Source of the DNA: Parcubacteria group bacterium Gr01-1014_20
GTDB taxonomy: Bacteria > Patescibacteriota > Minisyncoccia > UBA6257 > 2-01-FULL-56-20
DNA: 64,000 nt
Direction: 5' to 3'
NCBI GenBank assembly: GCA_007376265.1
Contig: VMFW01000009.1
Span: 70,592 to 134,591, forward strand
A program made the position numbers and the translations under genes. The notes below the pieces were generated by a model. It did not search any database, was not told where the DNA came from, and saw nothing but the letters and a program-made list of their open reading frames with translations. Position 1 is the stretch's first letter. Each line of letters begins with the position of its first letter. Below are positions 17,003-58,954 of the stretch, piece by piece.

Positions 17003-17374
17003 TTATTTATTGGCAATTTCTTTGACGTGAGTTACAAGATCGTCAATCGATGTTTTAACTTTAACGAAATACTCAACCGCGCCCAGTCTTTTGACTTTAT
17101 CGATATCGCTATCCTGGCCGAGGTTGGAAAGAATCATAACGGGAATCCGACTAATTTGAGGATCAAGAGAAATGCTTTCCAAAAGCTCGAAGCCGGAAAC
17201 TTTCGGCATGATAAGATCCATAACAATTAAGTCGGGTTTATCTTGCTTCAGCAAATTCAAGGCCTCCTCGCCATCAAAGGCTTGGATGGCCGTGAATCCC
17301 TCTTTTTCGAGTCGAGCTTTCATGAGGGATGACAAAAAACGATCATCCTCAATAACCAGAATCTTTTTTCCCAT
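17003..17374 (-). CDS. stand-alone response regulator receiver domain (CheY-like)
   Basis: KILVIEDD ... phospho-acceptor D in LIVMDLIMP ... conserved K in VEYFVKVK. 123 aa with no output domain. Confidence 0.8.
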   Translation of the reverse strand: MGKKILVIEDDRFLSSLMKARLEKEGFTAIQAFDGEEALNLLKQDKPDLIVMDLIMPKVSGFELLESISLDPQISRIPVMILSNLGQDSDIDKVKRLGAVEYFVKVKTSIDDLVTHVKEIANK

Positions 17375-17439: not shown

Positions 17440-17594
17440 CCGGGCTCCATAATTTTAAAAAAATTCTTAAAAAATGGAGCGGTTTGTTAGCTAGATCTTC
17501 GCTTTTGGCCTCGAGAATCATGCCTTGCGGCATAAAAATTTAACCAAAAGCAAAAATCTATCGACACGATTTGAACCGAAGTTCAATCGTTTAG

Positions 17595-19088
17595 TTTAAT
17601 TGTTCCACGCACAGCTTCCGCTACGCGTGCCTTGTTACGACTTAGCCCATGTCACCGATCTGAAGTTAGTCCTACTTGCGTAGGCCTTCACCTCTTACCG
17701 GCTCCCTTGGCTTGACGGGCAGTGAGTACAGGACTCGAGAACGTATTCACCGCGCCGTGGCTGATGCGCGATTACTAGCGATTCCGGCTTCATGAGGGCG
17801 AGTTTCAGCCCTCAATCCGAACTGGGGCTAGGTTTTTGGGATTAGCTCCGTCTTGCGACTTGGCAACCCTTTGTCCTAGCCATTGTAACATGAGTGTAGC
17901 CCAGGGCGTCAAAGGGCCATGCTGATTTGACGTCATCCCCTCCTTCCTCCCAGCCTTTTGTTCACGAAGTGAACAAAAGGAATTAGGAATAATGAATCAG
18001 GAATCATGGTTTTTATTTCACAATTCACAATTCGAAATTCCAGATTCGCTTTTGCACCTCCTGTGCAAAAGGCTGGGCAGTCCCGTGTGACACTTGTAAC
18101 ACACGATAGGGGTTGCGCTCGTTACCCCACTTAAGGGAACACCTCAAGGCACGAGCTGACGACAACCATGCAGCACCTGGACTAGCGGTCCTTGTGAGAG
18201 GGCCAACCTTTCGGCCGGCTTTCCGCTAGAATTTCAAGCCCTGGTAAGGTTCCTCGCTTGTCGTCGAATTAAACCTCATGTTCCACCGCTTGTGCGAGTC
18301 CCCGTCTATTCCTTTGAGTTTTAAGCTTGCGCTCGTACTTCCCAGGCGGCCTGCTTAACGCGGAAAGTCCCAGTGTGCTGCCTTCGCCTTTGGTATTCCG
18401 CACGATATCAACGGATTTCACCCCTACACCGTGCGTTCTACACACCTCTGACTCCCTCTAGCCCGATCGTATCTTTGGCACTTCCACCGTTAGGCGGTGG
18501 GCTTTAACCAAAGACGCACCGAGCCCCCTACATACTCTTTACGCCCAATAAATCCGGATAACGCTTGAGGTCTACGTATTACCGCTGGTGCTGGCACGTA
18601 GTTACCCACCTCTTTCCGTAAGGCACTCATTTGCATTGTTACCTTACTACCGCAGTTTACGACCCGGAGGCCTTCTTCCTGCACGCGGCGTCGCTCCATC
18701 AGGCTTTCGCCCATTGTGGAATATTCTCGACTGCTGCCTCCCGTAGGAGTACGAGCCGTGTCTCAGTCTCGTCGTTGGAGATCGGGCTCTCACCCCTCCT
18801 ACCGGTCATAGCCTTGGTGAGCCATTACCTCACCAACTAGCTGATCGGACCTAAGCCGATCCCAAAGCCCCTTGCGGGTTTACTCTTGCGAGACCATCGA
18901 GTATTACCTCACCTTTCGATGAGCTATTCTCGACTTTGGGGTACGTACTAGGGTGTTACTAACTCGTTCGCCGCTAAACTAATAAATCCGTCGCCTTGAT
19001 GTAATCGCAACTTCTTCAAAATTAGTTCCGCACGACTTGCATGCCTTATCCACGCCGCCAGCGTTCATCCTGGACCAGGATCAAATCC
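17595..19088 (-). rRNA. rrs: 16S ribosomal RNA (about 1.5 kb) with an about 115-nt expansion insertion and an atypical 3' tail
   Basis: Minus strand begins GAGGATTTGATCCTGGTCCAGGATGAACGCTGGCGGCGTG. Contains the universal GTGCCAGCAGCCGCGGTAATAC and AAGTCGTAACAAGG blocks. 3' terminus reads ...GCGTGGAACAATTAAAC instead of ...GGATCACCTCCTT. The insertion at 17956..18070 is flanked by pairing cccagcc/ggctggg. Confidence 0.85.
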
Positions 19089-19149
19089 TCAAAAAAACTT
19101 TTCAACTTCGCTCAAGATTTTCATCTTGAGTTGATCGAAAAGTTAGTAA

Positions 19150-19851: not shown

Positions 19852-20748
19852 TTAGCTACCGACTCGCCAAGGATAAGGAGAGAGAACGGTAACGATTCTT
19901 TTTTTGAAGTCAGGACAAAGGAGGGTGAAAAAATCGTATCTCTCGGGATATTCTAGTGGTGCAAGCAAGATGTCTCCCAGCACGGGATTACTCCCTCCTA
20001 AGATTTTCCCCTCTTCAGCTTCGCAGGCAATTTGGAAATAAACATCCGTCTCCAATTCACTGTTTGTCTGAATAATTCCTGCCTCTTCCCTCGCCCAAGC
20101 TGAATGTCTTTCAATCTCTCGCTCAAGCGCTTTTTTTTCAACAAAGCTACCGACTTGATCCAAAACCTCTTCGGCTGGCCACGCTCTTTTCTCGAGACAA
20201 TCGTCTTCCCAGTTCAAGATCATGAGCCAGCCTTCTTTTTCTAATGGCCTGGCTAGTTCCTTAAGCATTGTTCCGTACTCTGTTTCAATTTCTTTGGTTA
20301 ATCTTCCCGAATTTAGATACGAGCGATTTAGGGTTATAAGCCAAGAAACCTCGACTCCAGCTTGATTGAAAATATCTTTTACGCCCCTTAGCTCGCTCGT
20401 AAAAAGTTTTTTTTCTTGCTTGGTCGCCAAAAAACAATCTCCCTGTTTCTCTCGACGAACTTCGAGGTCCTTGCTAAAGCACCATTGGGTCAGGATTGTG
20501 ATTGCTTTTCCACTCGTTACGGCTTCTTGTAGGTAAGAGTCAACCCAACCATCTATTCTTGGATTGTTTGGCCTTATCAAACTACTTCTCTTTCGCAGTA
20601 GCTCTAAAGCTTTTGTTACGGATCTGAATCTCATTTCTTGCCTCCTTGGTTTTATTAACTTGTAAAAGTACTTGGTAAAAACTAGCCCAACTCCTTTTTC
20701 GAATTGGCTAAATTTCGACCTTTTAATTTTTTTACTCTTGTAACTCAT
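19852..20748 (-). CDS. hypothetical protein
   Basis: The track ORF runs to 20895, but that region is tRNA-His. Start moved to the internal Met (MSYKSKKIKR) or possibly later (MRFRSV at 20634). No recognised domain. Confidence 0.4.
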   Translation of the reverse strand: MSYKSKKIKRSKFSQFEKGVGLVFTKYFYKLIKPRRQEMRFRSVTKALELLRKRSSLIRPNNPRIDGWVDSYLQEAVTSGKAITILTQWCFSKDLEVRREKQGDCFLATKQEKKLFTSELRGVKDIFNQAGVEVSWLITLNRSYLNSGRLTKEIETEYGTMLKELARPLEKEGWLMILNWEDDCLEKRAWPAEEVLDQVGSFVEKKALEREIERHSAWAREEAGIIQTNSELETDVYFQIACEAEEGKILGGSNPVLGDILLAPLEYPERYDFFTLLCPDFKKRIVTVLSPYPWRVGS

Positions 20749-20759
20749 TTTGAGTTGGG

Positions 20760-20833
20760 GTCGTCGAGGGGAGTCGAACCCCCAACCATTCCGTTCACAA
20801 CGGAACGCTCTACCGATTTGAGCTACGACGACC
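20760..20833 (-). tRNA. tRNA-His(GUG) with genomically encoded G-1
   Basis: Minus strand G-GTCGTCG-TA-GCTCAAATCGGTAGAGC-G-TTCCG-TTGTGAA-CGGAA-TGGTT-GGGGG-TTCGACT-CCCCT-CGACGAC-C. Anticodon GTG. The extra 5' G pairs with discriminator C73, the His identity element. CCA not encoded. Confidence 0.8.
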
Positions 20834-20842
20834 ATGTGGAGG

Positions 20843-20868
20843 GGAAGGAAAAGAACTTCCTTCCCCAT
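20843..20868. repeat. perfect 10-bp hairpin (ggggaaggaa-aagaac-ttccttcccc) immediately upstream of tRNA-His
   Basis: Read from the sequence; possible processing or terminator stem between hisS and tRNA-His. Confidence 0.4.
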
Positions 20869-21120
20869 TTGATGTGTGCGGCCCGGCACCGCCAAAGGCT
20901 CGATGCCAACTCGGAACCATTGGACTCCTCCCTTTTAAAGAACAAAAAAATCCCCGCCAAACAAAAACCCCTTCACAAGGAAGAGGCGGTTTAGTGGGGA
21001 CTGCTTAGCTGAATGAAAAAGCGTAAAACCAACCTCTTCTTAGAAGGGGTTGATATGGTGCACCAAATTATTGATGGACTTTTTCATTTGGCTTTTATTA
21101 TAGCAGCTTATAATCTGGTG

Positions 21121-23120: not shown

Positions 23121-23154
23121 AACATTCCAACATTCTCAAGAATGTTGGAATGTT
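23121..23154. repeat. 34-nt palindromic element copy 1 (ACATTCCAACATTCT-CA-AGAATGTTGGAATGT)
   Basis: Perfect 15-bp arms with a 2-nt centre, 2 nt after the stop of the histidine kinase gene. Sister copy inside miaA at 51834..51865. Confidence 0.7.
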
Positions 23155-23156
23155 GA

Positions 23157-24755
23157 CTATGTGATTTTTCGGAGCTTAACAAAGAATTTACTCCCCTTTC
23201 CTTCTCCGGGTGATTCTGCCCAGATTGTTCCGGCGTGATCGGTCACTATCCGTTTGGCGATGTAGAGTCCCAGGCCAGTACCCTTGATTTCTTTCTTTAC
23301 TCTCTCATCACGGATGAACTCCTGGTCGAAAAGATGAGGCAAAAGAGTTGGGCCGATACCAAGACCGGAGTCGGTGACTGAAAAAGTGACGTAACCGTTT
23401 TCCTCCTTGGTTTCCACCTTCACAAATCCCTGGGGGGTGTATTTGATGGAATTTTCCACCAAATTGGCGAGGACTTGCTTCAGTTTTTGTGGGTCGGCGC
23501 TAACGCTCGCCTCGGTTCCGGAGGTGAAGGAGAATTCCAGTTTTTTGGCATCGGCTTGAACCTTTAATCCGTCTATGACGTTCTGAACTAAATCTTTTAT
23601 TTTTACGTTCTCGAATTTGTAGTCCATCTTCCCCTCTTCTACCTTGCGGAGGTCAAGAAGAGTGTTGATGAGGTTGATAAGCTCGTCGGCGGAGTTTTTC
23701 ATCTTCTGGAGAGTTTCTTTGATTTTGTCATTAATGGGACCGTAGATACCGTCCATGATGATGGAAGCAAAGCCTTTGATAGTGGCAAGCGGAGCTTTGA
23801 TCTGGTGAGCGGAGAGAGCCAACATTTGGCTTTTGAAACGGCTGAGGCTTTCGAGTTCGGTGTTAGCTTTTTGGAGTTTTTCGGATAGTTCCTGGAGTTG
23901 TTCGCGCTGTTTTATTTCTTTTGTAACTCCCCTTATTACTAGCAGGCCGGTAACGATTGTGCCGATTAACACCACCCCATTCACCAGGATCTGTCTTACG
24001 GATTCTGAAGTGAGTAATTGAATAAAGATTGTAATATTTAGAAGTATGACAGCAAGCTCGGCCAAAATAGCTTTGAGATTTAATAGCCGATGCTTCACCA
24101 TTGCGTAAGTTGTGAAAACTATAAATGGCAGGGTATACAAATGGCCAAGCCTAACAGTAGACAAATCTTCGAATATAACGTAGTTGAAAAAACTGAAAAC
24201 CAATACCAGCAAGAAAGTGAAGACCAAGCCGAAAGAAAGGTAGCGCCATTGAAGCTTCTCCACCCCCTCCGACTTCTGATATTTTTTTACTAAGGAATAG
24301 AAGGCCCATAATATACATCCACCAACGAAAATTCCGAAAAATGGAATAGCCGGACCAGGTTTAGGACCTAAACTCCCAGATTGATTGGGTTCGAGTTTCT
24401 CAAAAATTAAGGGGGACAGAGTTAATGCAATAATTACAACTAGGAAAACGATTAATGGTGTTAGTAGTTTACTGGTCAAAACTTTTCTTTTTTCTAAGAA
24501 TGTATATATAAACAGAAAAAAGAAAAACGCATGTAAGGCAGCAAACAACATTGTTAAGCGAGCAAGCCAGAGAAAGTTATTTCCGACAAAAGCTGCAAAA
24601 TTTGTCCCAATCCAAAAGACTTGGCTCAATACAAATGCGCCAAAGAGATACCTAGAAACGCTTTTGGGCGAGTATCGTAAAACAATAATACCAAGAGAAA
24701 TATTGGCAATAATCGCGATAACAAAAAGTGGAAACTCAACTTGTATGTAGGTCAT
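23157..24755 (-). CDS. sensor histidine kinase (multi-TM sensor, HisKA + HATPase_c)
   Basis: About 7 N-terminal TM helices; H-box LSRFKSQMLALSAHQIKAPL; G-boxes SGLGIGPT and GTGLGLYIAKRIV. Start overlaps the stop of the upstream oxidoreductase (ATGA). Confidence 0.8.
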   Translation of the reverse strand: MTYIQVEFPLFVIAIIANISLGIIVLRYSPKSVSRYLFGAFVLSQVFWIGTNFAAFVGNNFLWLARLTMLFAALHAFFFFLFIYTFLEKRKVLTSKLLTPLIVFLVVIIALTLSPLIFEKLEPNQSGSLGPKPGPAIPFFGIFVGGCILWAFYSLVKKYQKSEGVEKLQWRYLSFGLVFTFLLVLVFSFFNYVIFEDLSTVRLGHLYTLPFIVFTTYAMVKHRLLNLKAILAELAVILLNITIFIQLLTSESVRQILVNGVVLIGTIVTGLLVIRGVTKEIKQREQLQELSEKLQKANTELESLSRFKSQMLALSAHQIKAPLATIKGFASIIMDGIYGPINDKIKETLQKMKNSADELINLINTLLDLRKVEEGKMDYKFENVKIKDLVQNVIDGLKVQADAKKLEFSFTSGTEASVSADPQKLKQVLANLVENSIKYTPQGFVKVETKEENGYVTFSVTDSGLGIGPTLLPHLFDQEFIRDERVKKEIKGTGLGLYIAKRIVTDHAGTIWAESPGEGKGSKFFVKLRKIT

Positions 24756-25777
24756 ATCAGAATATCTCTCACTGCTAACCTTGGGCTGTGTCTTGGAATC
24801 ATTTTTGAATACCCCACCCTTGCAAATACTCGTGGAGTGCTAGTGACACCAGCAACTTCTCTTACTTGCTTATGATAATCCCCAACCTGAACTCCCGAAG
24901 CCAGTGGGGCGCAGCTTATCCCAAAAGACTCTGCTATCAGCCATATCCTTTCAAAAGCTTGGCCGGACTTTACCCAACCTATCTGGTTGTCCTCCCTTGT
25001 CCCTATTATTATGAAAGCTGGGGTGTGCAATTTCAAAAGAGCATCGTCTTGCTTTTTACTCTTCCTAGACATATTAATTTTTTTTATAAGCTTGGAGGCT
25101 ATTAGTGATATTGGCGCTGGCAAACCCAAAGTGAATCCGGGCATGCCTACCTTGTCTTTTGTGAAATTTGATTTGACGTAGTGAGAAAGTTCCTCCCGAA
25201 AGGAATCGCTGTCCATAGATTCGATTTGGGCTTTATTAACTGTTTCTGCTAGTTGTTCTTTTATTTCTTTGTCGGTGATTAAAAGAACTTCGGTTTCACT
25301 GTTCGAAATTTTACTAATTTTTTCTATAAATTCCTGGGATAGAATTTTATCTTCATATTTTCCTCTATTGGTTCTTCGATTTGGTATGGAAAATATCAGA
25401 TGGTTTGAGTCATTTTTTGTTGATCCTGTTCGTGCTAGCGATGCCTTAACAAAAAAGTCTTTTTCTTCATTTAGGGGGAAATAGACAATATCGCAAGAAA
25501 ATCCATAGAAGTCTGCGGCTGTGATTAAGTTTTCAAGCGCGCATCCCATTGCAATAGAGAGTTGGCGTCTCTCTGGGTCACTTTTAGCTAAAGACCTATC
25601 TTTATTTACCCAAAACTCAACTGATTTATCAATAATTTTAAGGCTCCAGGGTTGACTGTTGTGGCCCGAGGGCGCAAGAAGAACAAAACCAAGCAAAAAT
25701 TTAAGTTGATCTCGTAGACCCCCTTGTTCTGGAAAAGAGTTTATATCTATCGCCCAGGGAGCGTAGTTTTCTTTCAC
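24752..25777 (-). CDS. tandem nitroreductase-fold FMN oxidoreductase (Acg-like)
   Basis: Nitroreductase family motif PSGHNSQPW near the N-terminus; 341 aa consistent with two nitroreductase-like halves. Confidence 0.55.
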   Translation of the reverse strand: MKENYAPWAIDINSFPEQGGLRDQLKFLLGFVLLAPSGHNSQPWSLKIIDKSVEFWVNKDRSLAKSDPERRQLSIAMGCALENLITAADFYGFSCDIVYFPLNEEKDFFVKASLARTGSTKNDSNHLIFSIPNRRTNRGKYEDKILSQEFIEKISKISNSETEVLLITDKEIKEQLAETVNKAQIESMDSDSFREELSHYVKSNFTKDKVGMPGFTLGLPAPISLIASKLIKKINMSRKSKKQDDALLKLHTPAFIIIGTREDNQIGWVKSGQAFERIWLIAESFGISCAPLASGVQVGDYHKQVREVAGVTSTPRVFARVGYSKMIPRHSPRLAVRDILI

Positions 25778-25790
25778 GCCTTAATTATAG

Positions 25791-26027
25791 CAGAAAAAAG
25801 ACGTAGCGGCCGGAAAATTTCCAATTTTGGTTGGGAGTGGAACTGACAAAGAAAATGCTCGGGAAATACTGAAAGTTGCTAACGGAGCAATTGTAAGCAC
25901 TTCCCTTAAGGAGGGTGCTAAGAAGAAAACGGAGGTGAACGTAAAAACTTACGAACAGAGAATTAGCGAAAAGAAAGTGCGCGAGTTAGTCCGCTCCCTA
26001 CGAACTAGAGCCCGAAGATTTTCTTGA
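25791..26027 (+). pseudogene. C-terminal remnant of a BtpA/SgcQ-family TIM-barrel protein
   Basis: In-frame translation GKFPILVGSGTDKENAREILKVANGAIVSTSLKEGAKK resembles the C-terminus of BtpA-family proteins. Stop codon at 25788, and no room for the about 190 missing N-terminal residues, which are occupied by the opposite-strand gene. Confidence 0.45.
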
Positions 26028-27186
26028 AGTTTTCCGTGGATTGCTTTCGGTTTTTGATTTCTTCCGGGGAGTTGTAGCTTGGGATCAGTTTTTCGTCCAA
26101 GGAAATTAGAGCGCGGTTGTTTTCGAGTGGTTGGCCATTCAGAATTTTTCGGACACAATAAGCCACGGCGGAACCGTTAAGTAGGGCTGCGCCTCCCAGT
26201 TGCGGCCACGAAACGGTAGTTTTCCCGATTTCTAAAAGAGAATCTTTCATCCCTTGGGTTACATTTTCCGGCCCCACAAGTTTGGTAATCATTTTACCAA
26301 TACCGAATTTGTCTAGGTTATTTAATTCTTCATAACTAACTTTGCCCATGCGCCCGTGGAAAAATTCTTGGTTAGGATCTAAATCGTAACGCTCAATATC
26401 CACTACGCCATTGTCTCCGTTGTCAGCCGCCATCACTACCGCTAATTTACGTTTTTGCGCTTGTTCGCGAATTAGATATTTAACAGCCAAGTTGTCGATC
26501 TCATCTATAATAATGTCTAGTCCATCGAAAAACTTCTCGATATTTTCCTTAGTTAGTCCATCTTTAAAAATCTCAACTTGGGCATAAGGATTAACAGCAT
26601 AGATTTCTCTTGCGGTCATTTCAGCTTTCAAGAGACCTAAATTTTCTACACCAACACGGATGCGATTTGTATTGGATAAGGCTAGCCGATCATGATCTGC
26701 TAGCTTAACACGCTTACCCCCGCCCTGAAGAACAATAGCTAGAGCCACGCTATTTCCCACGCTTAGACCGGCAACACCTATCGTGGAGTTGTAAAATTTT
26801 GACTGCTCTTCTTCGGTGATTAAATTTCTATTCCTGGCTGTCCTAACTTTTTGAAAATCATCTTCCTCTAGAATGTGAACAAGCGTCGAGAGCCAGGGGA
26901 AATAGACCCACCGCCCATGTTGCCATAACAAACTGGGGTTTCCCAGGGACAGAGAATATTGGTCAAACTGACTCTTAAAGCTGGGTTGATAGACTAGTGA
27001 TGGATTGGCGATTTGGAAAAGTTCGAGTTGTTGTTCTTTATAATCATCGACGACTTGGCTGATTACACCTTGATCGATTAACCCAGAAAGAGCGACGACG
27101 TCTTTTTTGTCACTAAGATTAAGGAAAAGCGGCTTCGAATCTGATATATTTTTTGATCTTTCGCTAATAAAGTCTTTAATTTCCAT
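26005..27186 (-). CDS. ThiF/MoeB (E1-like) family protein with an about 130-aa N-terminal extension
   Basis: Rossmann/E1 motif IGVAGLSVGNSVALAIVLQGGGKRVKLADHDRLALSNTNR. 5-nt gap to the upstream gene. Confidence 0.65.
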   Translation of the reverse strand: MEIKDFISERSKNISDSKPLFLNLSDKKDVVALSGLIDQGVISQVVDDYKEQQLELFQIANPSLVYQPSFKSQFDQYSLSLGNPSLLWQHGRWVYFPWLSTLVHILEEDDFQKVRTARNRNLITEEEQSKFYNSTIGVAGLSVGNSVALAIVLQGGGKRVKLADHDRLALSNTNRIRVGVENLGLLKAEMTAREIYAVNPYAQVEIFKDGLTKENIEKFFDGLDIIIDEIDNLAVKYLIREQAQKRKLAVVMAADNGDNGVVDIERYDLDPNQEFFHGRMGKVSYEELNNLDKFGIGKMITKLVGPENVTQGMKDSLLEIGKTTVSWPQLGGAALLNGSAVAYCVRKILNGQPLENNRALISLDEKLIPSYNSPEEIKNRKQSTENFKKIFGL

Positions 27187-27191
27187 AATGA

Positions 27192-28748
27192 TTAATCTCG
27201 AGATATATATTTGGGTTTTAACCCAGGTTTAAAGTACTTTTGGTGTTGGTAGGGCCAAAGCTTAATTCTGGGACGAATATCTTTATCGAGATTATTCCAC
27301 AAAAATAGGTATTCCATGTTGACTTCTTTTAGTCTTTTTATAACATGCTCCCGGATAACCAACGCCAACGTGCGGGTAGGTTTGACCCTAGATTTTAACT
27401 CGATATTGATTTCCAAAAATTCATCCATATTATCTCTGTAGTCTTTACGCATAGTGAACTTTCCAGTTAGTTTTCTTAAGAATGGTTCGTGGTTAAGAGC
27501 AGAGTGAACATGTTCGGGGTAAATGTTGGCCGCGTAAAAAACGATGGTGTGATCGCTTCGTCCCAAAAGACTTACGAATGGCAGTTTCCAGAGAACTTTA
27601 TCGCCACCCGAGGCTTTCAGTTCTGCTCGCCACTTAGGTTCGTAGTCGTCCAGAGCGCTAGACATTTCCTTAAATTTTACGACTTTGCCTCCGTCCTTAA
27701 GATTAAACCTGACAAGCGGTAGTCCGCTTGCGGAAGTGAAGATTAGCTCTCCTTTTACCGATTCGATATGACGCAGGTATGGGTTGAACTGGAAGAGCCC
27801 TGGAGTGTGGACTTTATTAAATAATTGGGTGTTAAGGTGTTTGTTTTTCTCCAGTAAGGTTCTTATCAAAATACTCAACGGAGTTTCATGAGCCATAAGA
27901 AGAAGTTCTGAAGATCCGTAGGTATTAATTATGTTTTTCAGATCACTAGTGAGACCAGCCTCGGATGCAAGGTATTTGCGCCAGGTTTCGTTGAAACCTT
28001 CGCTACAAAACATTAATCTGAGGCGACGACTCGACCATCGAATCCCCTCCTCTTTACCAGTTTCAATAACATCTTTGAGAAAAAATGGGTGACCAATTAG
28101 GACAATCTGCTCATAGTCTCGGTCCAGGTTTTTGACCAACCGCAAAATTTCGTTTTTGTTGTTTCCAACGCTTGCGAGAGTTAGGGGATAATTTTTGCTT
28201 GAAACAAGCCAGCTCGGAAGAAGCGTAGCCACCCCGGAAACATAAACCCCCATCGGAAAACCGACAACGAGCAGGGTTCTATATTTGTTTATTTCGAAAA
28301 GATAACGATATAAAAGCTCGTGGACGACTGCGGCTTCGAGTTCTTGAAAATGTCCGCGGGGCCAAAATTTCGGCTCGCCACTCGTGCCAGAACTTACGGC
28401 TACCAATTTAGCTTGCGCCATTTCCCCATCCCAGGAACGCTTCTCGATGGGATAGAAATTAACGTAGTTTTTCTTATCGGTGAGAGGAACTTGTTTAAAA
28501 TCCTCACTCGTTTTTACCTTTACTGGATTAACTTTGTGCTTCTTTAAAAAGTCTCTATAGGCAGGAACTCGCTTGGAAGCCAGATGGAAAAGTTTTAGGG
28601 CCTTCCTTTCACCAAGTTTTTCCCAAAAACTTTCGTCTTTTGTTTTTAAGAGCCCTTCAAATTTTGTGATATCAAAGGCGTAAAAATCTCTAAGGTGGCT
28701 TTTACCATTAAAATCTAGGTTTTTTAAGATGTGGCGCCCATGGTCCAT
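27192..28748 (-). CDS. adenylate-forming enzyme of the GH3 / PaaK-F390 synthetase (ANL) type
   Basis: P-loop VAVSSGTSGEPKFWP (SSGTSG...K...P pattern of GH3 / phenylacetate-CoA ligase families). 518 aa. Confidence 0.6.
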   Translation of the reverse strand: MDHGRHILKNLDFNGKSHLRDFYAFDITKFEGLLKTKDESFWEKLGERKALKLFHLASKRVPAYRDFLKKHKVNPVKVKTSEDFKQVPLTDKKNYVNFYPIEKRSWDGEMAQAKLVAVSSGTSGEPKFWPRGHFQELEAAVVHELLYRYLFEINKYRTLLVVGFPMGVYVSGVATLLPSWLVSSKNYPLTLASVGNNKNEILRLVKNLDRDYEQIVLIGHPFFLKDVIETGKEEGIRWSSRRLRLMFCSEGFNETWRKYLASEAGLTSDLKNIINTYGSSELLLMAHETPLSILIRTLLEKNKHLNTQLFNKVHTPGLFQFNPYLRHIESVKGELIFTSASGLPLVRFNLKDGGKVVKFKEMSSALDDYEPKWRAELKASGGDKVLWKLPFVSLLGRSDHTIVFYAANIYPEHVHSALNHEPFLRKLTGKFTMRKDYRDNMDEFLEINIELKSRVKPTRTLALVIREHVIKRLKEVNMEYLFLWNNLDKDIRPRIKLWPYQHQKYFKPGLKPKYISRD

Positions 28749-28763
28749 TTTTTTAACCTGAAA

Positions 28764-30323
28764 CTATACCAGGCTGCTTTTTTGGATTACCGTTTCTAGT
28801 TCCTTAAGTTCCTCGGTTAGGGGTCGATCATCGTTTACCGCCCCAGAAACACTTCTAACTAAATCATAGAGTTTGCTGGATTCGTTGGAAAGCTTTTCTT
28901 TTTCTTCATGACAGTCCACGGCTTGAGCCAGGGTGACGAGTTCGATGGTAAGCACCACGTAAGCATTTTCTAAAACCTTGGCGGCGAAGAGGGCGGCGTC
29001 TGTGCCCATACTAACTACATCCTGATTATCGGAGTTGGTAGAAATAGAGTGAATTGAATGAGGGAAGGCTAGCGACTGGCTTTGGGCGGTGGTGGAAGTG
29101 GCTACGAACTGCAAGCCTTGAAGACCCAGGGTGAGTCCTGGTTTTTTTAAATTTAGAAAAGGTGGGAAGGATCTGTTAACTTTGTCGTTTAAGAAAAAGT
29201 TAATCTGACGCTCAAGTAATATGGTTAATTTGACTAGGCTCGCTTTCAGTCCATCTACTGCGGAGGCCACGTAGTCACCATGAAAGTTGCCCCCATGGAT
29301 GAACTTACTATTTTCCCAATCAACTAACGGATTGTCGGTTACGGAGTTGATTTCTATTTCAACCGTGCTCTCGGTTTGTTTCAAAGCCTCCCAGATCGGG
29401 CCTAAAATTTGGGGTAAACACCGGAGCGAGTAAACTTCCTGAACATCGGAAGGGATTTTATAGACATCGTTTTCCTCCTTGATCATCTCTCGAAGTATTT
29501 TGCGATCACGCATCAACTTTGAGGACGCGAGAATCTCTCTCATCTTTCCAGCCACAAAAACCTGGCCTTCGTGGGGGCGAAGTTCGTGAAGTTTTTCGGA
29601 GATACTATCTAAGAAACCGTGGACGAGCTCGAGGGCCAAGGCTCCGGTTCTAATAGATGTGCTCAGAAGTTGATCGGTCTCAGCGCAAATTAGAGCGGTG
29701 ATGCCTGACATAACGGAAGTGCCATTGATTAGGGCGAGACCTTCCTTGGGTTTGAGTTTGATGGGAGTTAGGCCAACCTCCTTAAAAACTTCGGGGGTGG
29801 GACGGGTTTTCCCTTGATACGAAACTTTCCCCTCCCCGATTAGAACGAGGGCAATGTGGGCGAGTTGGGTTAGGTCGCCGCTTGTGCCCACCGCGCCGTG
29901 TTCTGGCACTATCGGTAAAATTCTATGGTTGATGATATTTTTAAAGAGCTCCACCAAGTCCCAGGAAACGCCGGAGTAGCCTTTGACGAGGGTATTTAGG
30001 CGGACAACCATGGAAGAGAGTACGTACTTCTCGGGGATTGGGCTACCGATGCCACAGGCATGACTGCGAACCAAGTTTTCTTGGAGTTCGATGAGATCAT
30101 TTTTACTGATGATGTGGGAGGCCATCGGCCCAAAACCAGTGTTTATGCCATAAACAATCTTATTGTTGGTTTCGAGCTCGCTATTCAAAAAAGCGTGGCA
30201 TTTTAATACGACTTCTTTGGCCGCATCTCCAATTTCCACCTTTGCTTCTGGGTTTTGGGTGAACCAGTTCAGATCTTTGATTTTCAGGCTTTTGCCGTCT
30301 AGGACTAGCTTTTGTTGCTCCAT
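28764..30323 (-). CDS. MIO-dependent aromatic amino acid ammonia-lyase/aminomutase family enzyme (HAL/PAL family; SH selectivity dyad like histidase, TSG instead of ASG at the MIO position)
   Basis: GINTGFGPMA, LVRSHACGIG, GAVGTSGDLTQLAHIALVLIGEG, LINGTS, YSLRC, GGNFHG are all HAL/PAL hallmarks. 519 aa. Confidence 0.75.
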   Translation of the reverse strand: MEQQKLVLDGKSLKIKDLNWFTQNPEAKVEIGDAAKEVVLKCHAFLNSELETNNKIVYGINTGFGPMASHIISKNDLIELQENLVRSHACGIGSPIPEKYVLSSMVVRLNTLVKGYSGVSWDLVELFKNIINHRILPIVPEHGAVGTSGDLTQLAHIALVLIGEGKVSYQGKTRPTPEVFKEVGLTPIKLKPKEGLALINGTSVMSGITALICAETDQLLSTSIRTGALALELVHGFLDSISEKLHELRPHEGQVFVAGKMREILASSKLMRDRKILREMIKEENDVYKIPSDVQEVYSLRCLPQILGPIWEALKQTESTVEIEINSVTDNPLVDWENSKFIHGGNFHGDYVASAVDGLKASLVKLTILLERQINFFLNDKVNRSFPPFLNLKKPGLTLGLQGLQFVATSTTAQSQSLAFPHSIHSISTNSDNQDVVSMGTDAALFAAKVLENAYVVLTIELVTLAQAVDCHEEKEKLSNESSKLYDLVRSVSGAVNDDRPLTEELKELETVIQKSSLV

Positions 30324-30381
30324 TTTATATCGAGTATTATAGCACCCTTGGCTGGATTAGTTAAGTCAAAAATCAAGACAT

Positions 30382-32163
30382 TTATCCCGAAACTACACCT
30401 TTAATCCTTCTTTGACCCGAACCTATCGATTCTTCTTTGGAAATCTTGAAGTGGCCAATGATGCCGGTGTGGTCGACATGAGGCCCTCCGCAGAACTCCT
30501 TACTCCAAGCGGATTTAATGTCTTTACCGACGAAATAAACCTTGACCATATCGGGATATTTTTCCTTGAAAAAGAAGAGGGCGCCGGTTTTTTCGGCTTC
30601 ACCCTTGGACATCTCTTTGAAATTGACCGGCAAATCTTCTTTGATTTTTTCATTCACTAAATCCTCAACTTTTTTGATTTCTTCCGGAATAAGTTTTCTT
30701 GGAAAAGAATAATCGAAGCGGGTGCGCTCGGCGGTGATGTCGGAACCGGTTTGTTTGACTTCCGGGCCTAAAACTTCACGGAGAGCTCTTTGCAATAAAT
30801 GAGTGGCGGTGTGGAGACAGAGAACTTTATTCAACTCCTCCTCGTTCACAGCTTTCAGCTCTCCGGTGTTTAAAATCAGGCCGTGGCCGCCGAACTTTTT
30901 GCCCACGCCGGCACGGGAAATTTCTTGGTGTTTTTTGAACTCTTCGTCGAATTCTTCGCGACTTAACTTTCCAGCTTTTGCGCCGGAAACTTCTTTGATG
31001 GTTTCGTAAGGTAGGCCGAAGCTTTCGTAGAGCCTGAAGGCGGATTTGGTATCAACTTCGGAAATTTTAGCTAGCTCTTTCAAACCAGTCGACAAGGTTT
31101 TTGAAAACTTGGTATTTTCGTCCTCAAACACAGACAAGATGGTTTTAATGTCTAACTTTTTGTAAAAAGCACCATAGTTTTCCACGATTGTTTTAAGAAC
31201 TTTTTCAATTTCCACTTTGGCTTGATAGGCAATGAGGCGGCGCGTTAGGCGGCGCAATATGTATCCAGCTTCCTTATTGGATGGCCTAACCCCATCCGAA
31301 ATCAAAAAACAAACTGCTCGGGAGTGGTCCGCAAAAACCCTTTTGGTTTTTTCATCCATTTCCTCCGGCAAGATTTTGAAAACCGGAGTGAACAAATCGG
31401 TTTCGAAAATGCTGGATTTTTGCTGGATAATCATAGCTAGCCGCTCAAAACCCATACCGGTGTCGACGCCTTTTTGTTTAAGAGGTTCCAGCTTCTTTCC
31501 TGAAGTACCGGCTAACAGCTCTTCGCGTGAGCCTGGGAAGAAAAACTCGTTGAAGACTAAATTCCATATCTCAACATCTTCACCCTTTACGTTTTTGCAG
31601 TAGATTTCGGTCGTAGGGCCACAGGGACCAGATGTGCCGGTTGGACCCCAAAAAACATCGTGCATCCCCTCCTCTCGAATGTCGGTGACGCCAAGATCTT
31701 TCCAGATTCCCGCGGATTCTTCGTCTCTCGGAACTTCGCTCGAACCCTTTCCGCCGGAGGCGGATCCGCCTTCGGGGGAAAAGATAGTGACGTAGGAAAT
31801 CGGAAAATTAAGTTCCTTAGTAATAAATTCGTGGGCGTATCCTATGGCTTCTTTTTTGAAGTACCCACTGAAGGAAAAGTTGCCTAACATTTCGAAAAAG
31901 GTGAGGTGGGTTTCGTCGCCGACTTCATCGATATCAGAGGTACGGAAGGATTTTTGGATGGAAGTAGTGTTTTTCGAACCAAAATCCTTAACCGGATCAG
32001 CTTCGCCAGTGTAGTATTTTTTGAACTGTTGCATACCCGCGGTTGTCAAAAGCACCGAGGGGTCGGTGGGGATGAGAGAAGAAGAAGGCACAACAACGTG
32101 GCCGTTCTTTTTAAAGTAGTCGAGGAATTTTTGACGGATTTCGGATGATGACAGATGACTCAT
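30382..32163 (-). CDS. alaS: alanyl-tRNA synthetase, short form (catalytic + editing domains, no C-Ala domain)
   Basis: N-terminus SEIRQKFLDYFKKNGHVVVPSSSLIP and FTNAGM-like TTAGMQQFK. Editing-domain zinc motif HTATHLL ... CGGPHV. Only 593 aa. Confidence 0.8.
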   Translation of the reverse strand: MSHLSSSEIRQKFLDYFKKNGHVVVPSSSLIPTDPSVLLTTAGMQQFKKYYTGEADPVKDFGSKNTTSIQKSFRTSDIDEVGDETHLTFFEMLGNFSFSGYFKKEAIGYAHEFITKELNFPISYVTIFSPEGGSASGGKGSSEVPRDEESAGIWKDLGVTDIREEGMHDVFWGPTGTSGPCGPTTEIYCKNVKGEDVEIWNLVFNEFFFPGSREELLAGTSGKKLEPLKQKGVDTGMGFERLAMIIQQKSSIFETDLFTPVFKILPEEMDEKTKRVFADHSRAVCFLISDGVRPSNKEAGYILRRLTRRLIAYQAKVEIEKVLKTIVENYGAFYKKLDIKTILSVFEDENTKFSKTLSTGLKELAKISEVDTKSAFRLYESFGLPYETIKEVSGAKAGKLSREEFDEEFKKHQEISRAGVGKKFGGHGLILNTGELKAVNEEELNKVLCLHTATHLLQRALREVLGPEVKQTGSDITAERTRFDYSFPRKLIPEEIKKVEDLVNEKIKEDLPVNFKEMSKGEAEKTGALFFFKEKYPDMVKVYFVGKDIKSAWSKEFCGGPHVDHTGIIGHFKISKEESIGSGQRRIKGVVSG

Positions 32164-55059: not shown

Positions 55060-57001
55060 TTAGACAGACAGGTCGGGAAGCTCGGACGGGACCTCCGATT
55101 CGAGGCTGTCGAGCCAGATTTGCGGATCAGCATCTGAGGGCATGCGCCAGTCCCCTCTTGGAGAAACACATGTCAAGCCAACCTTCGGACCGTCTGGCAG
55201 ACAGGAGCGTTTATTCTGAGATCGGAAAAAGCGAGTGATGAATAGGTTGAGCCACTTTTTGATTTCGGCGATGGAATACTGGGTGCCAAAAGCGTGGTGG
55301 GCCATCCTCGCAATTTTAGCCGGTGACATACCAAAGCGCACAAAGTAATACCCAAAGAAATCATGGAGCTCATAAGGGCCAATGATCCCCTCGGTTTTTT
55401 GCGCGATTTGACCCTGGTCGGCCGAGAGCAGTTCTGGCGAAATGGGAGTCGAGAGGATGTCTTCGAGGACTCGCTGAACTTCCGGCTGGTCTTTGTAGAT
55501 CACGTCCGAAGTCCACTTGATCAGGTAAGAGATGAGGGTCTTTGGAACGCCGGCATTAATACCATAGTGGCTGGCGTGATCACCAAACATGGTGGTCCAG
55601 CCAAGCATGAGCTCCGAGAGATCTCCAGCCCCGAGAACAATCCCACTGCGCTCGCAAGCGACAGAAAGTTCGGTAAACTTCCTGGCCCACGCCTGAACAT
55701 TTTCGAAGGTGAGGTTCTCGACCGTGGGATCGTGACCGATGCTCCGGAAAATTTCCAGAGCGACTGGGGTAATCGGAATTTCCAAAATGGTAACACCGAG
55801 CGCCTGCATAAGCCGAATGGCATTATTTTTCGTGCGGTCGGTGGTGCCCAACCCTGGCATGGTGATACCGATCACGCTCACTCTCGGGAGACCCAAAAGA
55901 TCCGTGGCGAAGACAGCGACATCAAGCGCATGCGTGGAATCCTGGCCGCCTGAGACGCCGAGGATGACTTTTCGCATGCTCGGTGGCAGTTGTTCGAGAC
56001 GCCGCGCAAGAGCCGTGGCTTGAATCATGAAAGTTTCATAGCAACGGATGTCTCGCTTGGCGGGATCAGTCGGGACGAAAGGATGTTTCTCGATCTTTCT
56101 TTCCAAAAAAAGATTCGGGGTAGAAAAAGGATTTTTCCCTTTCAGCCGCGGTTTTTCAAACTCGACGCTTTCGACACACAGATCGACGGTGCGGAATTCA
56201 CGACCTTCGTCTTTGCCGTTCTCACGGAAAGAACTTTGCCGAGAACGCTCTTGGATGAGATTCCCGAGATCTACGTCCGTGACAATCGACTGACTCTCTC
56301 GTTTGAATCTTTCGGTTCTCACGAGCAGAGCCCCTCGTTCGGCGATTAAGCCGTCACCATCCCAGGCGAGATCCGTTGAGGATTCGCCATAACCGGCGGC
56401 GGAGTACATCTGAACGGCTAGGTTTTTTCCGGAAGAACCAACCACGAGCGTCTCGCGGTATTCGGACTTGCCGATAGTGATGTTCGAGGCCGAAAGGTTG
56501 GCGAGGACAGTGGCCCCCGCTAAAGCCGCGTGAGCACTTGGCGGAATCGGCACCCAGATGTCTTCACAGATTTCGGTGTGAAGAACGAAGCTGGGGTGTT
56601 CGAGAGACCGAATGAGGATGTCATTGCCGAACGGGACTTCTTGCCCCAGGAGGTTGATCGTTTTGCTCTTAGCCTCGGAGGCTCTGGCAAAGTGACGAAG
56701 CTCGTAGAACTCGCGATACTCTGGCGGATAAGACTTGGGCGCAACGGCCAGAATTTCACCGGCGTGAAAAGTAACCGCGACGTTAAAGAGCATGTCGTCA
56801 ACCATGAGCGGGCCCTAGCTCTGGGCAAAGAATATAGTAAGCGCCGTGATCGAGGTAAAGACGCTCGATTTCTCCTCGGTGCGACAGCATGTTTTGCCAA
56901 GGGTTGGATAAATGAACCCTCGGAACAGCAACGCCAACTCGGACAAAGCCGTGATTTCTTACATCTAGGAACTTATATGGGTTGGGTCCGTGGTAGGCCA
57001 T
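55060..57001 (-). pseudogene. nadE: glutamine-dependent NAD+ synthetase, disrupted (frameshift plus about 40-aa internal deletion in the CN-hydrolase domain)
   Basis: N-terminal ORF (start 57001) MAYHGPNPYKFLDVRNHGFVRVGVA...ILCPELG matches the NadE N-terminus (HGFVRV; FPEL catalytic Glu) and stops at 56798. The main ORF 55060..56805 (...APKSYPPEYREFYE...EICED...GVSGGQDSTHALDVA...) carries the remaining C-N hydrolase residues and the PP-loop synthetase domain. The segment between PELG and GPLMVDD expected from full-length NadE is missing. Confidence 0.65.
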
Positions 57002-57011
57002 TTTTCCTCCT

Positions 57012-57959
57012 TTAGGCGAGCAGTTGAGCGACTGTGTGGGCAAAAACCGGCGAGATATCAAGGACCTGGATCTTGCTGGACCTTGCGACTAGGGGATGTT
57101 GACTCATTGGATGAGAGTTCGTCCCGATGATCTTTACGATTGGCGAAGCCTCGAGTTTGCGAACTACCGACTCGTCGTTTAGAGCTAGATGCGAAACCAC
57201 CGCGTAAACATCTTTGGCGTTGTGACCTAGGTAGGCATTGGCGGCGTCGATGAGACTCGAGCCACCACGGATCATGTCGTCATAGATAATGACGGTTTTG
57301 CCGGCAGGGTTCCCGATCACTGCATTAACTTTAGTGATCTCAAACTCGCGGCCTTTGTCCACCAGGACGATTGAAACGCCGAAATGTTTGGCGTAGGTTC
57401 TGATCCACTTCGGTCTGCCTAAATCGGCCGAGCCGAAGATAAAATCACTCAGACCAAGCTGTCGGATGGCGGTAAGAATTGTAGACTCGGCGTAGGTTTC
57501 GAACCTCAGACAATCACCTTCCATGTAGTGAACCAGACCTTCGTTGTGAAGGTCTAGAAATAAGAAAGTGTTGCCGCCGCGAGTGTTGGGAATAGAAGAC
57601 AAAAAACGCATGCAGGTTTTGGCAGTGACCACCTCGCCGGGGAGTTTGGCTCGCTCCATGGTGGAATAGCCAAAAAACGGAATGACGAAGATGCGAGAGC
57701 GAGCGCCGTAACCGGCAAGAGCACAACCAACGCGATGAAGCTCTTGGAGATCGTCATCAGTATGAGTACTACCCACGAAGACAACGTCTTTTCCCATGAG
57801 GCCAGCGCGATCGTCAATACCGATGCGGTAATATCGTTCGCCGCCCGGAAAGATTCGCCTGTCGATTTGACCCCGTTCGGTTACGCCCAGCTGAAGGGCG
57901 ATTTTTTGAGCCAGGTAATCTGAGGCTTTAGTCGAAAAAACAAGAGGGCTACTCATCAT
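57012..57959 (-). CDS. prs: ribose-phosphate pyrophosphokinase (PRPP synthetase)
   Basis: N-terminal Prs fold and PRPP-binding loop VIIYDDMIRGGSSL; 315 aa. Confidence 0.8.
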   Translation of the reverse strand: MMSSPLVFSTKASDYLAQKIALQLGVTERGQIDRRIFPGGERYYRIGIDDRAGLMGKDVVFVGSTHTDDDLQELHRVGCALAGYGARSRIFVIPFFGYSTMERAKLPGEVVTAKTCMRFLSSIPNTRGGNTFLFLDLHNEGLVHYMEGDCLRFETYAESTILTAIRQLGLSDFIFGSADLGRPKWIRTYAKHFGVSIVLVDKGREFEITKVNAVIGNPAGKTVIIYDDMIRGGSSLIDAANAYLGHNAKDVYAVVSHLALNDESVVRKLEASPIVKIIGTNSHPMSQHPLVARSSKIQVLDISPVFAHTVAQLLA

Positions 57960-58103
57960 GGAAGACTCCTTTCAAGATTAGATTAAGTTTTCAAATATCA
58001 GTTTTCCTTGGTGGAGACACCTATTTTTCAATAAGTAGCTCCGTTAAGAAAAAGATGGGGGGGGCGGAAGAGTTCTTATTCAGAACTCTTCCGCCCGTAG
58101 AAA

Positions 58104-58823: not shown

Positions 58824-58954
58824 GGCAAGTTTCTCCTCTCTTAATATGGTTTAAAAGAACAAAGTCTCCTTATTGCAGTTACCCAAAACTTTTTGAGTAA
58901 CTCCATCAAGGAGCGGTGGAGGATAAAATTTCATCCCCCACCGCTAAGGTGCTA

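Follow-up and report, generated by a model that had tools for sequence, protein, structure and literature searches.

What might a bacterium of the candidate phyla radiation (CPR, or Patescibacteria) be making, and perhaps sensing, with an operon that joins an ammonia-lyase, an adenylate-forming ligase, a ThiF/E1-like protein, a nitroreductase-fold flavoenzyme and a membrane histidine kinase? The question is raised by a 64-kb stretch of DNA, here referred to as the window, which belongs to the genome bin of a CPR/Patescibacteria member, Parcubacteria group bacterium Gr01-1014_20, and is the part of that bin inspected here. All functions proposed below for the cassette are inferred from sequence, predicted structure, gene fusions and gene order. 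On these grounds the whole locus can be read as a self-contained operon for an oxazolone (azlactone)-type molecule that is assembled from amino acids and ATP without coenzyme A (CoA), a reading to which we assign a probability of about one half. Pairs of oxazolone synthetase enzymes are already known; their link with a lyase, a ligase, a kinase and a CPR host is new in the literature searched.

Organization and conservation of the cassette

The cassette consists of five open reading frames (ORFs) on the minus strand, which lie where an initial annotation of this DNA had placed them. In the order of transcription these encode a 4-methylideneimidazole-5-one (MIO) lyase (28764..30323, 519 aa; Pfam Lyase_aromatic, 534 bits), a PaaK-family ligase (27192..28748, 518 aa; no Pfam match), a ThiF/E1-like protein (26005..27186, 393 aa; Pfam ThiF, 74 bits), a nitroreductase-fold flavoenzyme (24752..25777, 341 aa with a GTG start; Pfam Nitroreductase, 41 bits) and a seven-transmembrane (7TM) histidine kinase (23157..24755, 532 aa; HisKA_7TM, HisKA and HATPase_c). 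Gaps of 15, 5 and 227 nt lie between the first four genes, and the oxidase stop overlaps the kinase start by 4 nt (ATGA); the ORFs, the two later gaps and the overlap had been described correctly, and only the first gap, previously given as 16 nt, needs correction.

Relatives of the cassette were gathered by scanning one genome per species with an alignment of the ligase, which yielded 42 loci, each assembled independently; the loci were collected via the ligase, and gene co-occurrence among them is therefore conditional on that gene. All 42 are from Patescibacteria, among them Paceibacteria, Doudnabacteria, Kaiserbacteria and Lloydbacteria, and in 26 of them the order lyase, ligase, E1, reductase and kinase is kept on a single strand (tblastn with the window proteins; two of the 26, L007 and L008, are identical and both are counted). 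Among the non-canonical loci one is permuted (L022), one is dispersed (L039), several are cut by a contig end and several are rearranged. Successive genes are separated by median gaps of -1.5, 2, 4.5 and 2.5 nt, the last of these being the distance at which the kinase follows in complete loci; the cassette is a tightly packed operon, kinase included. The flanking genes differ between genomes (DnaK/DnaJ/GrpE, tryptophanyl-tRNA synthetase (TrpRS), histidyl-tRNA synthetase (HisRS) or MltG), and the five genes thus travel as a unit. The initial annotation had described an operon-like accessory locus for small-molecule chemistry with the kinase wired into it, and the recurrence of the five-gene order with short gaps bears out both parts of that description.

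A profile search with the ligase among 1.84 billion representatives returns 879 relatives at E <= 1e-30, an upper bound that may take in neighbouring PaaK-like families, and the matches listed with an organism name are almost all from Patescibacteria. A contig labelled 'Gammaproteobacteria' (P0062) was considered as a sign of spread outside the group and rejected, as it has a CPR-type DnaJ and TrpRS context and is probably mis-binned. Under L044 (JGI 3300045996 contig) and L045 (GCA_020697435.1), too, a cassette is noted on a contig that is binned as 'Gammaproteobacteria', shares this DnaJ/TrpRS context and is probably from a mis-binned CPR genome. The window ligase shows 100% identity to its NCBI entry. 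The cassette genes are deposited as histidine ammonia-lyase, phenylacetate-CoA ligase, dinucleotide-utilizing protein and hypothetical protein, and these current database names are misleading.

Some cassettes carry additional genes of a tailoring type, namely a radical SAM/SPASM protein after E1, a class I S-adenosylmethionine (SAM) methyltransferase between reductase and kinase, and a histidine-specific-methyltransferase-like protein before the reductase. Loci with such genes are L025 (12797-13747), L002 (9416-10360), L006, L009, L020 and L036 (all four in the reductase-kinase interval), and L005 (7986-8939).

A probable oxazolone synthetase pair

The window E1 matches the model NF005901 ('Rv1355c family') with 346.7 bits over model positions 5-347 of 722, and 80.3 bits are reached by the window reductase on the C-terminal half of this model. 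The equivalog cut-off of 476 bits applies to the whole protein and is not comparable with the scores of a split pair. In two relatives E1 and reductase are fused, and here the NF005901 scores are 474.2 bits, just under the cut-off (L017), and 500.1 bits, which passes it (L032). Rv1355c is TrzS, the N-acyl-tryptazolone synthase, which combines a ThiF cyclase with a flavin-dependent oxidase (FDO) acting as desaturase (PMC12856293). The same ThiF-cyclase/FDO logic is found in the split pair TyzB/TyzC of Mycobacterium tuberculosis (PMC10404671), and the same chemistry in OxzB of Pseudoalteromonas rubra (bioRxiv 10.1101/2020.06.11.147165); all of these oxazolone synthetases act on free N-acyl amino acids. 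A 2025 review counts OxzB as the sole validated ThiF-like enzyme in a natural-product pathway outside the ribosomally synthesized and post-translationally modified peptides (RiPPs). By its profile matches, the E1/reductase pair of the cassette is most probably a member of this oxazolone synthetase family.

The adenylation motifs D-x-D...S-N-x-N-R and D-E-x-D are invariant in 34 E1 homologues and align with TcdA, the N6-threonylcarbamoyladenosine (t6A) cyclodehydratase, which is the nearest solved structure and likewise closes an oxazolone ring. From its motifs the E1 looks catalytically competent. Matching through profiles and motifs, rather than through an alignment of TrzS itself, suggests that the motif Asp is equivalent to the essential D217 of TrzS, and R540 of TrzS was matched via profiles and motifs only in the same way. 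In the reductase, the motifs APS-N-QPW and R-x-x-N-R are conserved.

The initial annotation had taken the E1/nitroreductase combination for the scaffold and dehydrogenase of azoline-forming RiPP machineries, an assignment that gives way to the OxzB/TyzBC/TrzS family. It had also cautioned that the chemistry is not that of a standard thiazole/oxazole-modified microcin (TOMM), and this holds: YcaO is absent from the cassette, its recurrent neighbours and the window. A RiPP or TOMM pathway was accordingly rejected, as there is neither YcaO nor space for a precursor, and E1 and reductase match the small-molecule enzyme Rv1355c. No recurrent small ORF on the coding strand that could encode a precursor peptide was found among the cassette loci, and because the median gaps are <=5 nt there is no room for a conserved precursor gene. 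Antisense clusters of small ORFs (c12, c39 and c60) were tried as precursor genes and discarded as shadows of the intact E1 gene.

In the characterised oxazolone systems an acyl-CoA-dependent N-acyltransferase is used, and its gene is usually adjacent (PMC10404671, PMC12856293, bioRxiv 10.1101/2020.06.11.147165). Pfam annotation, used here without a dedicated profile or sequence for OxzA, TyzA or TrzA, reveals no N-acyltransferase among the recurrent neighbours in the 42 loci, in the variant cassettes or among the ORFs of the 64-kb window.

The ammonia-lyase

When the lyase is ranked against eight MIO models of NCBIfam, the FlxA tyrosine ammonia-lyase (TAL) model scores best (601.7 bits), ahead of hutH (470.1 bits), Phe-aminomutase (424 bits) and Tyr-aminomutase (392 bits). 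His88, Gln434, Y58, T147-S148-G149, N200, Y298 and R301 are invariant in 37 of 37 cassette lyases. Gln434 aligns with a Glu of histidine ammonia-lyases (HAL); at this second selectivity marker histidases carry Glu, TAL and phenylalanine ammonia-lyases (PAL) carry Gln, and TAL has a His switch in addition (PMC3992019). The cassette lyase thus shows the His switch, the Gln marker, an X-Ser-Gly MIO triad and the catalytic Tyr and Arg of a TAL, and from this residue pattern it is read here as a tyrosine ammonia-lyase.

The motifs pointed out in the initial annotation, LVRSHACGIG and the TSG triad, are indeed present, with His88 and T147-S148-G149 kept throughout the family, yet the meaning attached to them has changed. 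The Ser-His dyad had been taken as a mark of histidases, but it occurs also in the tyrosine aminomutase SgcC4 (LVRSHSAGVG). The TSG triad had been put forward as an aminomutase variant; it is invariant in the family, and is therefore uninformative on mutase versus lyase activity. Histidase (HutH) was rejected as an identity, since the hutH score stays below the TIGR01225 cut-off of 539 bits, Gln takes the place of the HAL Glu, and hutU/hutI context is lacking: neither urocanase (HutU) nor imidazolonepropionase (HutI) is encoded within the 64-kb window.

The ligase and its fusions

The second enzyme is a PaaK-family adenylate-forming enzyme of a new, mostly Patescibacteria subfamily. Its profile matches (PaaK, FlxY and F390 synthetase) are all weak and N-terminal; PaaK proper was rejected on a score of 51.5 bits, from the N-terminal part only, against a TIGR02155 cut-off of 646, though the fold is that of PaaK, which makes the ligase a distant subfamily. 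The same fold comparison overturns the earlier assignment as a GH3-type adenylating enzyme, while the proposed functional pairing of lyase and adenylating enzyme is supported. Invariant in 94 ligase homologues are a P-loop Ser-Ser-Gly, Y277-G278, D352, R397 and a C-terminal Lys, and motif residues beside this core are kept in at least 90% of them. The AlphaFold model has a predicted local distance difference test (pLDDT) score of 93, and its four nearest structures comprise two CoA ligases, one entry of the NatL2 series and ClxA. In NatL2 and ClxA an amine or a phenol reacts with the acyl-adenylate directly and CoA is not needed (PMC12519233, PMC7204872), and the cassette ligase, judged from its predicted structure, could form amides directly.

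Gene fusions place the ligase between the other enzymes. Ligase-E1 (863 aa) and E1-ligase (880 aa) proteins are found, as are fusions to a ScyB-like amino-acid dehydrogenase, either as dehydrogenase-ligase (847 aa) or as dehydrogenase-ligase-E1 (1242 aa). All of these fusions are encoded in cassettes that have a reductase and a 7TM kinase as well. They give the ligase one physical link to a deaminating enzyme and another to the cyclase. The dehydrogenase fusions belong to a second form of the cassette, which is made up of reductase, dehydrogenase-ligase(-E1), alpha/beta hydrolase and HisKA_7TM kinase (L046 6986-14237, L048 6962-14901, L050 1114-6742 and L051 4095-10155), and of which one example was sequenced in the project that also yielded the window. 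In this form an ELFV-family (ScyB-like) dehydrogenase takes the place of the MIO lyase and shares one chain with the ligase, a chain that in L046 includes E1 too. The first enzyme is therefore interchangeable between two kinds of amino-acid deaminating enzyme, and the 7TM kinase is constant across lyase-type and dehydrogenase-type cassettes.

Proposed pathway

In the proposed pathway the MIO enzyme, as its residue pattern suggests, would convert L-Tyr to p-coumarate and NH3. The ligase would then adenylate p-coumarate, and the coumaroyl-AMP would be captured by an amino-acid amine, with an N-(p-coumaroyl) amino acid as the product, a step deduced from the fusions, the gene content and the structural neighbours of the ligase. 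The ligase would in this way replace the acyl-CoA-dependent N-acyltransferase of the Oxz, Tyz and Trz pathways; that it makes an N-acyl amino acid is the simplest reading, because the cyclase needs a free carboxylate and an amide and there is no nearby N-acyltransferase. In keeping with its family membership, the ThiF-like enzyme is expected to adenylate the free carboxylate so that the amide oxygen closes the oxazolone ring, and the flavoenzyme would desaturate the C-alpha/C-beta bond to yield a conjugated arylidene oxazolone, an assignment that is weaker where the flavoenzyme is of the Acg type (see below). Finally, given the conserved linkage of the genes, the membrane kinase may sense the product and signal through receiver-only proteins.

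Several points weigh against this pathway. Most PaaK-family enzymes are CoA ligases. Known FDO desaturases need O2, and many of the organisms concerned live in low-oxygen groundwater. The lyase scores below the FlxA equivalog cut-off NF053541 (601.7 versus 700 bits) and is, at the level of sequence, not separable from a tyrosine aminomutase; the enzyme activities and the sensing by the kinase are predictions. One locus, L010, has no reductase between E1 and kinase, and the second-form cassettes add an alpha/beta hydrolase, which would make a ring-opened final product possible. FlxY, the sole characterised partner of a FlxA-type TAL, makes 4-coumaroyl-CoA (PMC3992019), and the Acg-type (FDO-B-like) group to which the window flavoenzyme belongs is held not to be involved in oxazolone synthesis in M. 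tuberculosis (PMC10404671).

Alternative explanations

An oxazolone could also arise by a classical route, in which a FlxY-like 4-coumarate-CoA ligase works with an unlinked acyl-CoA-dependent N-acyltransferase before E1 and flavoenzyme act. The precedents of FlxY and of the CoA-ligase family speak for such a route, yet an acyltransferase does not recur near the cassette in the 42 loci or in the variants, as would be usual from the characterised systems; moreover, the ligase-E1 fusions suggest a direct hand-over to E1, and a CoA thioester lacks the free carboxylate that the cyclase needs, so that we consider this route doubtful. Another possibility is that E1 acts on the C-terminus of a protein or peptide, in the manner of MccB or PaaA, as part of a RiPP pathway, or in attaching coumarate to a protein. 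Most ThiF-like enzymes do work on polypeptides or tRNA, and a TAL with a ligase is the pair that supplies the chromophore of photoactive yellow protein (PYP). Against such a target stand the tight packing of the genes (median gaps <=5 nt) without a recurrent family of small coding-strand ORFs, the lack of YcaO in cassette or window, the Rv1355c or Acg type of the reductase, and the match of E1 to Rv1355c/TrzS over its whole length, N-terminal extension included; so does a kinase in which no PAS/PYP domain is detected with Pfam profiles. Taken together, a polypeptide-directed E1 seems unlikely.

The identity of the lyase leaves room for a tyrosine 2,3-aminomutase that would feed a beta-tyrosine pathway like that of SgcC4/SgcC1, leading to another heterocycle or conjugate. 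The TSG triad also forms MIO in the aminomutase AdmH. The Ser-His motif is as in SgTAM, and against the PDB the lyase scores 303.7 bits on AdmH and 297 bits on SgTAM, level with HAL. However, the FlxA TAL model leads the Tyr-2,3-mutase model by ~210 bits (601.7 versus 392), cassette lyases have an invariant Pro where SgTAM has Glu71, and the dehydrogenase that fills the slot of the lyase in variant cassettes implies that what the two enzymes have in common is the deamination of an amino acid to an acid and not its isomerisation; an aminomutase is thus regarded as quite unlikely. Finally, the deposited names 'histidine ammonia-lyase' and 'phenylacetate-CoA ligase' would fit ordinary catabolism, with HutH and PaaK lying by chance beside unrelated genes. 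This is highly improbable in view of scores below the respective cut-offs (hutH 470 versus 539 bits, PaaK 51.5 versus 646 bits), the Gln in place of the HAL Glu, the absence of HutU/HutI and of paa genes from the 64-kb window, and a five-gene order that is kept across divergent genomes with different flanks.

The kinase and its regulators

The kinase combines a seven-helix membrane sensor domain (HisKA_7TM, 35.9 bits) with HisKA (48.7 bits) and HATPase_c (88.6 bits) domains, and N52, R66 and K228 of the membrane domain are invariant. Its conserved linkage to the enzymes suggests that it most likely senses the hydrophobic product within the membrane, in an autoinducer-like loop. A more remote notion is that the reactive azlactone acylates the kinase itself, which would give a GFP-like chromophore.

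No response regulator adjoins the kinase in the window, where the nearest is a receiver-only gene on the minus strand (17003-17374, 123 aa; Pfam Response_reg, 79 bits), 5.8 kb from the kinase. A receiver-only regulator flanks the cassette in ~14 relatives, and the window gene falls in the same sequence cluster (c5) as these; it is a candidate partner of the kinase. From this linkage the kinase probably signals via receiver-only regulators and not via a DNA-binding one. Directly after kinase and receiver-only regulator, four loci encode a 576-aa fusion of a receiver to a T2SSE/PilB-type ATPase (L013 15758-17488, L019 15900-17651, L030 15758-17488 and L041 15750-17486), a hint at type IV pili, and not transcription, as the possible target of the kinase. 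Beside several cassettes lie two or three HisKA_7TM kinases that are paralogues of each other (L031 5056-8223 and 14727-16307, L044 6260-9645, and L048 12733-14901 and 18423 onward), which points to diversification of the sensor around a common set of biosynthetic genes.

Natural oxazolones were discovered in 2021 and their physiological role is open (PMC12856293). An oxazolone synthetase pair and a membrane kinase in one cassette provide a hypothesis for the function of these molecules, together with a candidate receptor. Tentatively, and with clearly less assurance than for the biosynthetic operon, the cassette can be seen as a widespread CPR/Patescibacteria signalling module in which an arylidene oxazolone made from amino acids and ATP, independently of CoA and lipid metabolism, is sensed by the kinase of the same operon, with the output passing through receiver-only proteins and, in some lineages, through a receiver-fused PilB-type pilus ATPase. 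If so, natural oxazolones would gain in this kinase their first candidate receptor, and the module would be a cell-cell or host-sensing circuit in bacteria that are thought to be nearly devoid of secondary metabolism. The acyl supply suggested here, by amino-acid deamination and an ATP-dependent ligase with no CoA involved, would fit a minimal metabolism that lacks fatty-acid synthesis. In ultra-small bacteria the cassette may serve widely, and so far unnoticed, in the sensing of partners or hosts.

Comparison with known systems

The combination of five genes, which the initial annotation had suspected to be undescribed, has no match in the literature searched; not all journals were covered, and within those that were, no paper was found that joins oxazolone or ThiF-nitroreductase enzymes with an ammonia-lyase, a PaaK-type ligase, CPR bacteria or a histidine kinase. 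Parts of the cassette resemble several characterised systems. Like the cassette, TrzAS of M. tuberculosis (Rv1356c/Rv1355c) comprises a ThiF-like ATP-dependent cyclase and a nitroreductase-fold flavin-dependent oxidase (PMC12856293). In the window, however, cyclase and oxidase are separate genes and the oxidase is of the Acg type; the cassette lacks a TrzA-type acyl-CoA N-acyltransferase and has the lyase, the PaaK-family ligase and the 7TM kinase instead, and it is found in a CPR bacterium, not in an actinomycete. Separate cyclase and oxidase proteins are also found in TyzABC (PMC10404671). TyzABC and OxzAB (bioRxiv 10.1101/2020.06.11.147165) use substrates derived from aromatic amino acids and yield an oxazolone, as is proposed for the cassette, but TyzA and OxzA take the acyl group from a fatty acyl-CoA, whereas in the cassette it would come from a deaminated amino acid by way of an ATP-dependent ligase. 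The Tyz and Oxz clusters also have no sensor kinase.

The first two genes recall FlxA/FlxY, which initiate flexirubin biosynthesis in Chitinophaga pinensis with a TAL that has the His and Gln markers and a ligase that differs from the plant-type 4-coumarate-CoA ligase (4CL) (PMC3992019). The FlxY thioester feeds a type II polyketide/fatty-acid machinery, while no such machinery is present at the cassette, and the cassette ligase is a weak match to FlxY (24 bits), with the lyase under the FlxA cut-off. NatL2 and ClxA of benzoxazole biosynthesis (PMC7204872, PMC12519233) share the PaaK fold, with a structure-aligned identity to the cassette ligase of only 18-19%; their substrates are aminohydroxybenzoates and they have a special cap-domain extension. 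TOMM systems of the McbBCD type likewise place an E1-like protein beside an FMN-dependent nitroreductase-fold enzyme, but the cassette has neither YcaO nor a precursor peptide, its E1 has kept the adenylation motifs and its reductase is not of the SagB type. By gene logic only, the cassette is also similar to autoinducer operons of the agrBDCA type, which hold biosynthetic genes and a multi-helix membrane kinase in one operon; here, in contrast, the proposed signal is a small aromatic heterocycle and not a peptide, the kinase is of the HisKA_7TM kind and the regulators lack DNA-binding domains.

Flavoenzyme type and the BtpA remnant

The window flavoenzyme scores 204.1 bits on NF047509 (Acg family FMN oxidoreductase; cut-off 199), and its best PDB match is MsAcg (2ymv). 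Typing of 36 cassette reductases gives 30 of the Rv1355c type, with ~140-210 bits on the C-terminal half of the Rv1355c model, and six of the Acg type, which are carried by the window, its duplicate L001, L004, L011, L018 and L031. The Acg-type FDO of the window adjoins the ThiF enzyme, and the two reductases that are fused to E1 in relatives are of the Rv1355c type. Since the window flavoenzyme is Acg-type, desaturation is the least secure step of the proposed pathway for this genome.

The 227-nt gap between E1 and the flavoenzyme contains, as had been noted initially, a truncated gene of the BtpA family on the opposite strand (25818..26027, plus strand; last ~67 codons), with a Pfam BtpA match of 30 bits to profile positions 204-246 of 254. 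Its ORF has 66 codons, is convergent with the E1 gene and overlaps the 3′ end of the latter by 23 nt. By tblastn, positions 25818-26009 (plus strand) align only to residues 203-269 of the intact 269-aa BtpA of L004, which scores 230 bits and lies on the opposite strand directly after the ligase. The remnant had been read as evidence for insertion of the cluster at a BtpA locus, a view that no longer fits: BtpA is intact within the L004 cassette, the usual gap between E1 and reductase is ~5 nt and the flanks vary by genome, and the gap is therefore explained as a deletion scar inside the cassette. The scar coincides with the presence of an Acg-type enzyme in place of the usual Rv1355c-type flavoenzyme. 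The BtpA remnant is a local rearrangement scar and stands outside the pathway.

Promoter-like sites and neighbouring genes

A promoter-like site is located at 30336..30364 (minus strand), in the 58-nt gap between the alanyl-tRNA synthetase (AlaRS) gene and the lyase gene. It consists of TTAACT, a 17-nt spacer and a TG-extended TATAAT, agrees with the consensus at 10 of 12 positions, the top score of the region, and as a consensus match only is a candidate for the operon promoter. The extended -10-like sequence TGCTATAAT occurs both here, upstream of the lyase gene (30336-30344, minus strand), and at 25784-25792 (minus strand). The second copy precedes the reductase GTG start by 6 nt, inside the gap that holds the BtpA remnant, and may thus serve as a separate, possibly leaderless, promoter for reductase and kinase in this genome.

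The neighbours of the cassette in the window are housekeeping genes (HisRS, a NUDIX hydrolase, AlaRS, sigma-70 and primase), as are the remaining ORFs of the window. The ORF directly upstream (30382-32163, minus strand; 593 aa) was called an alanyl-tRNA synthetase from its translation, without a profile search. The usual bacterial enzyme has ~870 aa, and the window protein seems, from its length, to lack C-terminal parts. A full-length 16S rRNA gene without insertion (17593-19096, minus strand; Rfam, 1198 bits) is flanked by the gene for ribosomal protein L31 and by the receiver-only regulator gene; no 23S or 5S gene is present anywhere in the 64-kb window, and the rRNA genes appear to be unlinked. 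A mechanically called ORF of 347 aa (19852-20895, minus strand), whose product has no match in Pfam or NCBIfam, spans a tRNA-His gene (20756-20832, minus strand), and because it crosses that gene its true start lies downstream of the tRNA. A run of NAD-salvage genes at 55060-62260 (minus strand) encodes NAD synthase, phosphoribosyl pyrophosphate (PRPP) synthetase, a nucleoside deoxyribosyltransferase-like protein, nicotinate phosphoribosyltransferase and a NUDIX hydrolase, together with a 467-aa protein in which a cytidylyltransferase-like domain, of the nicotinamide mononucleotide adenylyltransferase (NMNAT) type, is joined to an NAD kinase domain.

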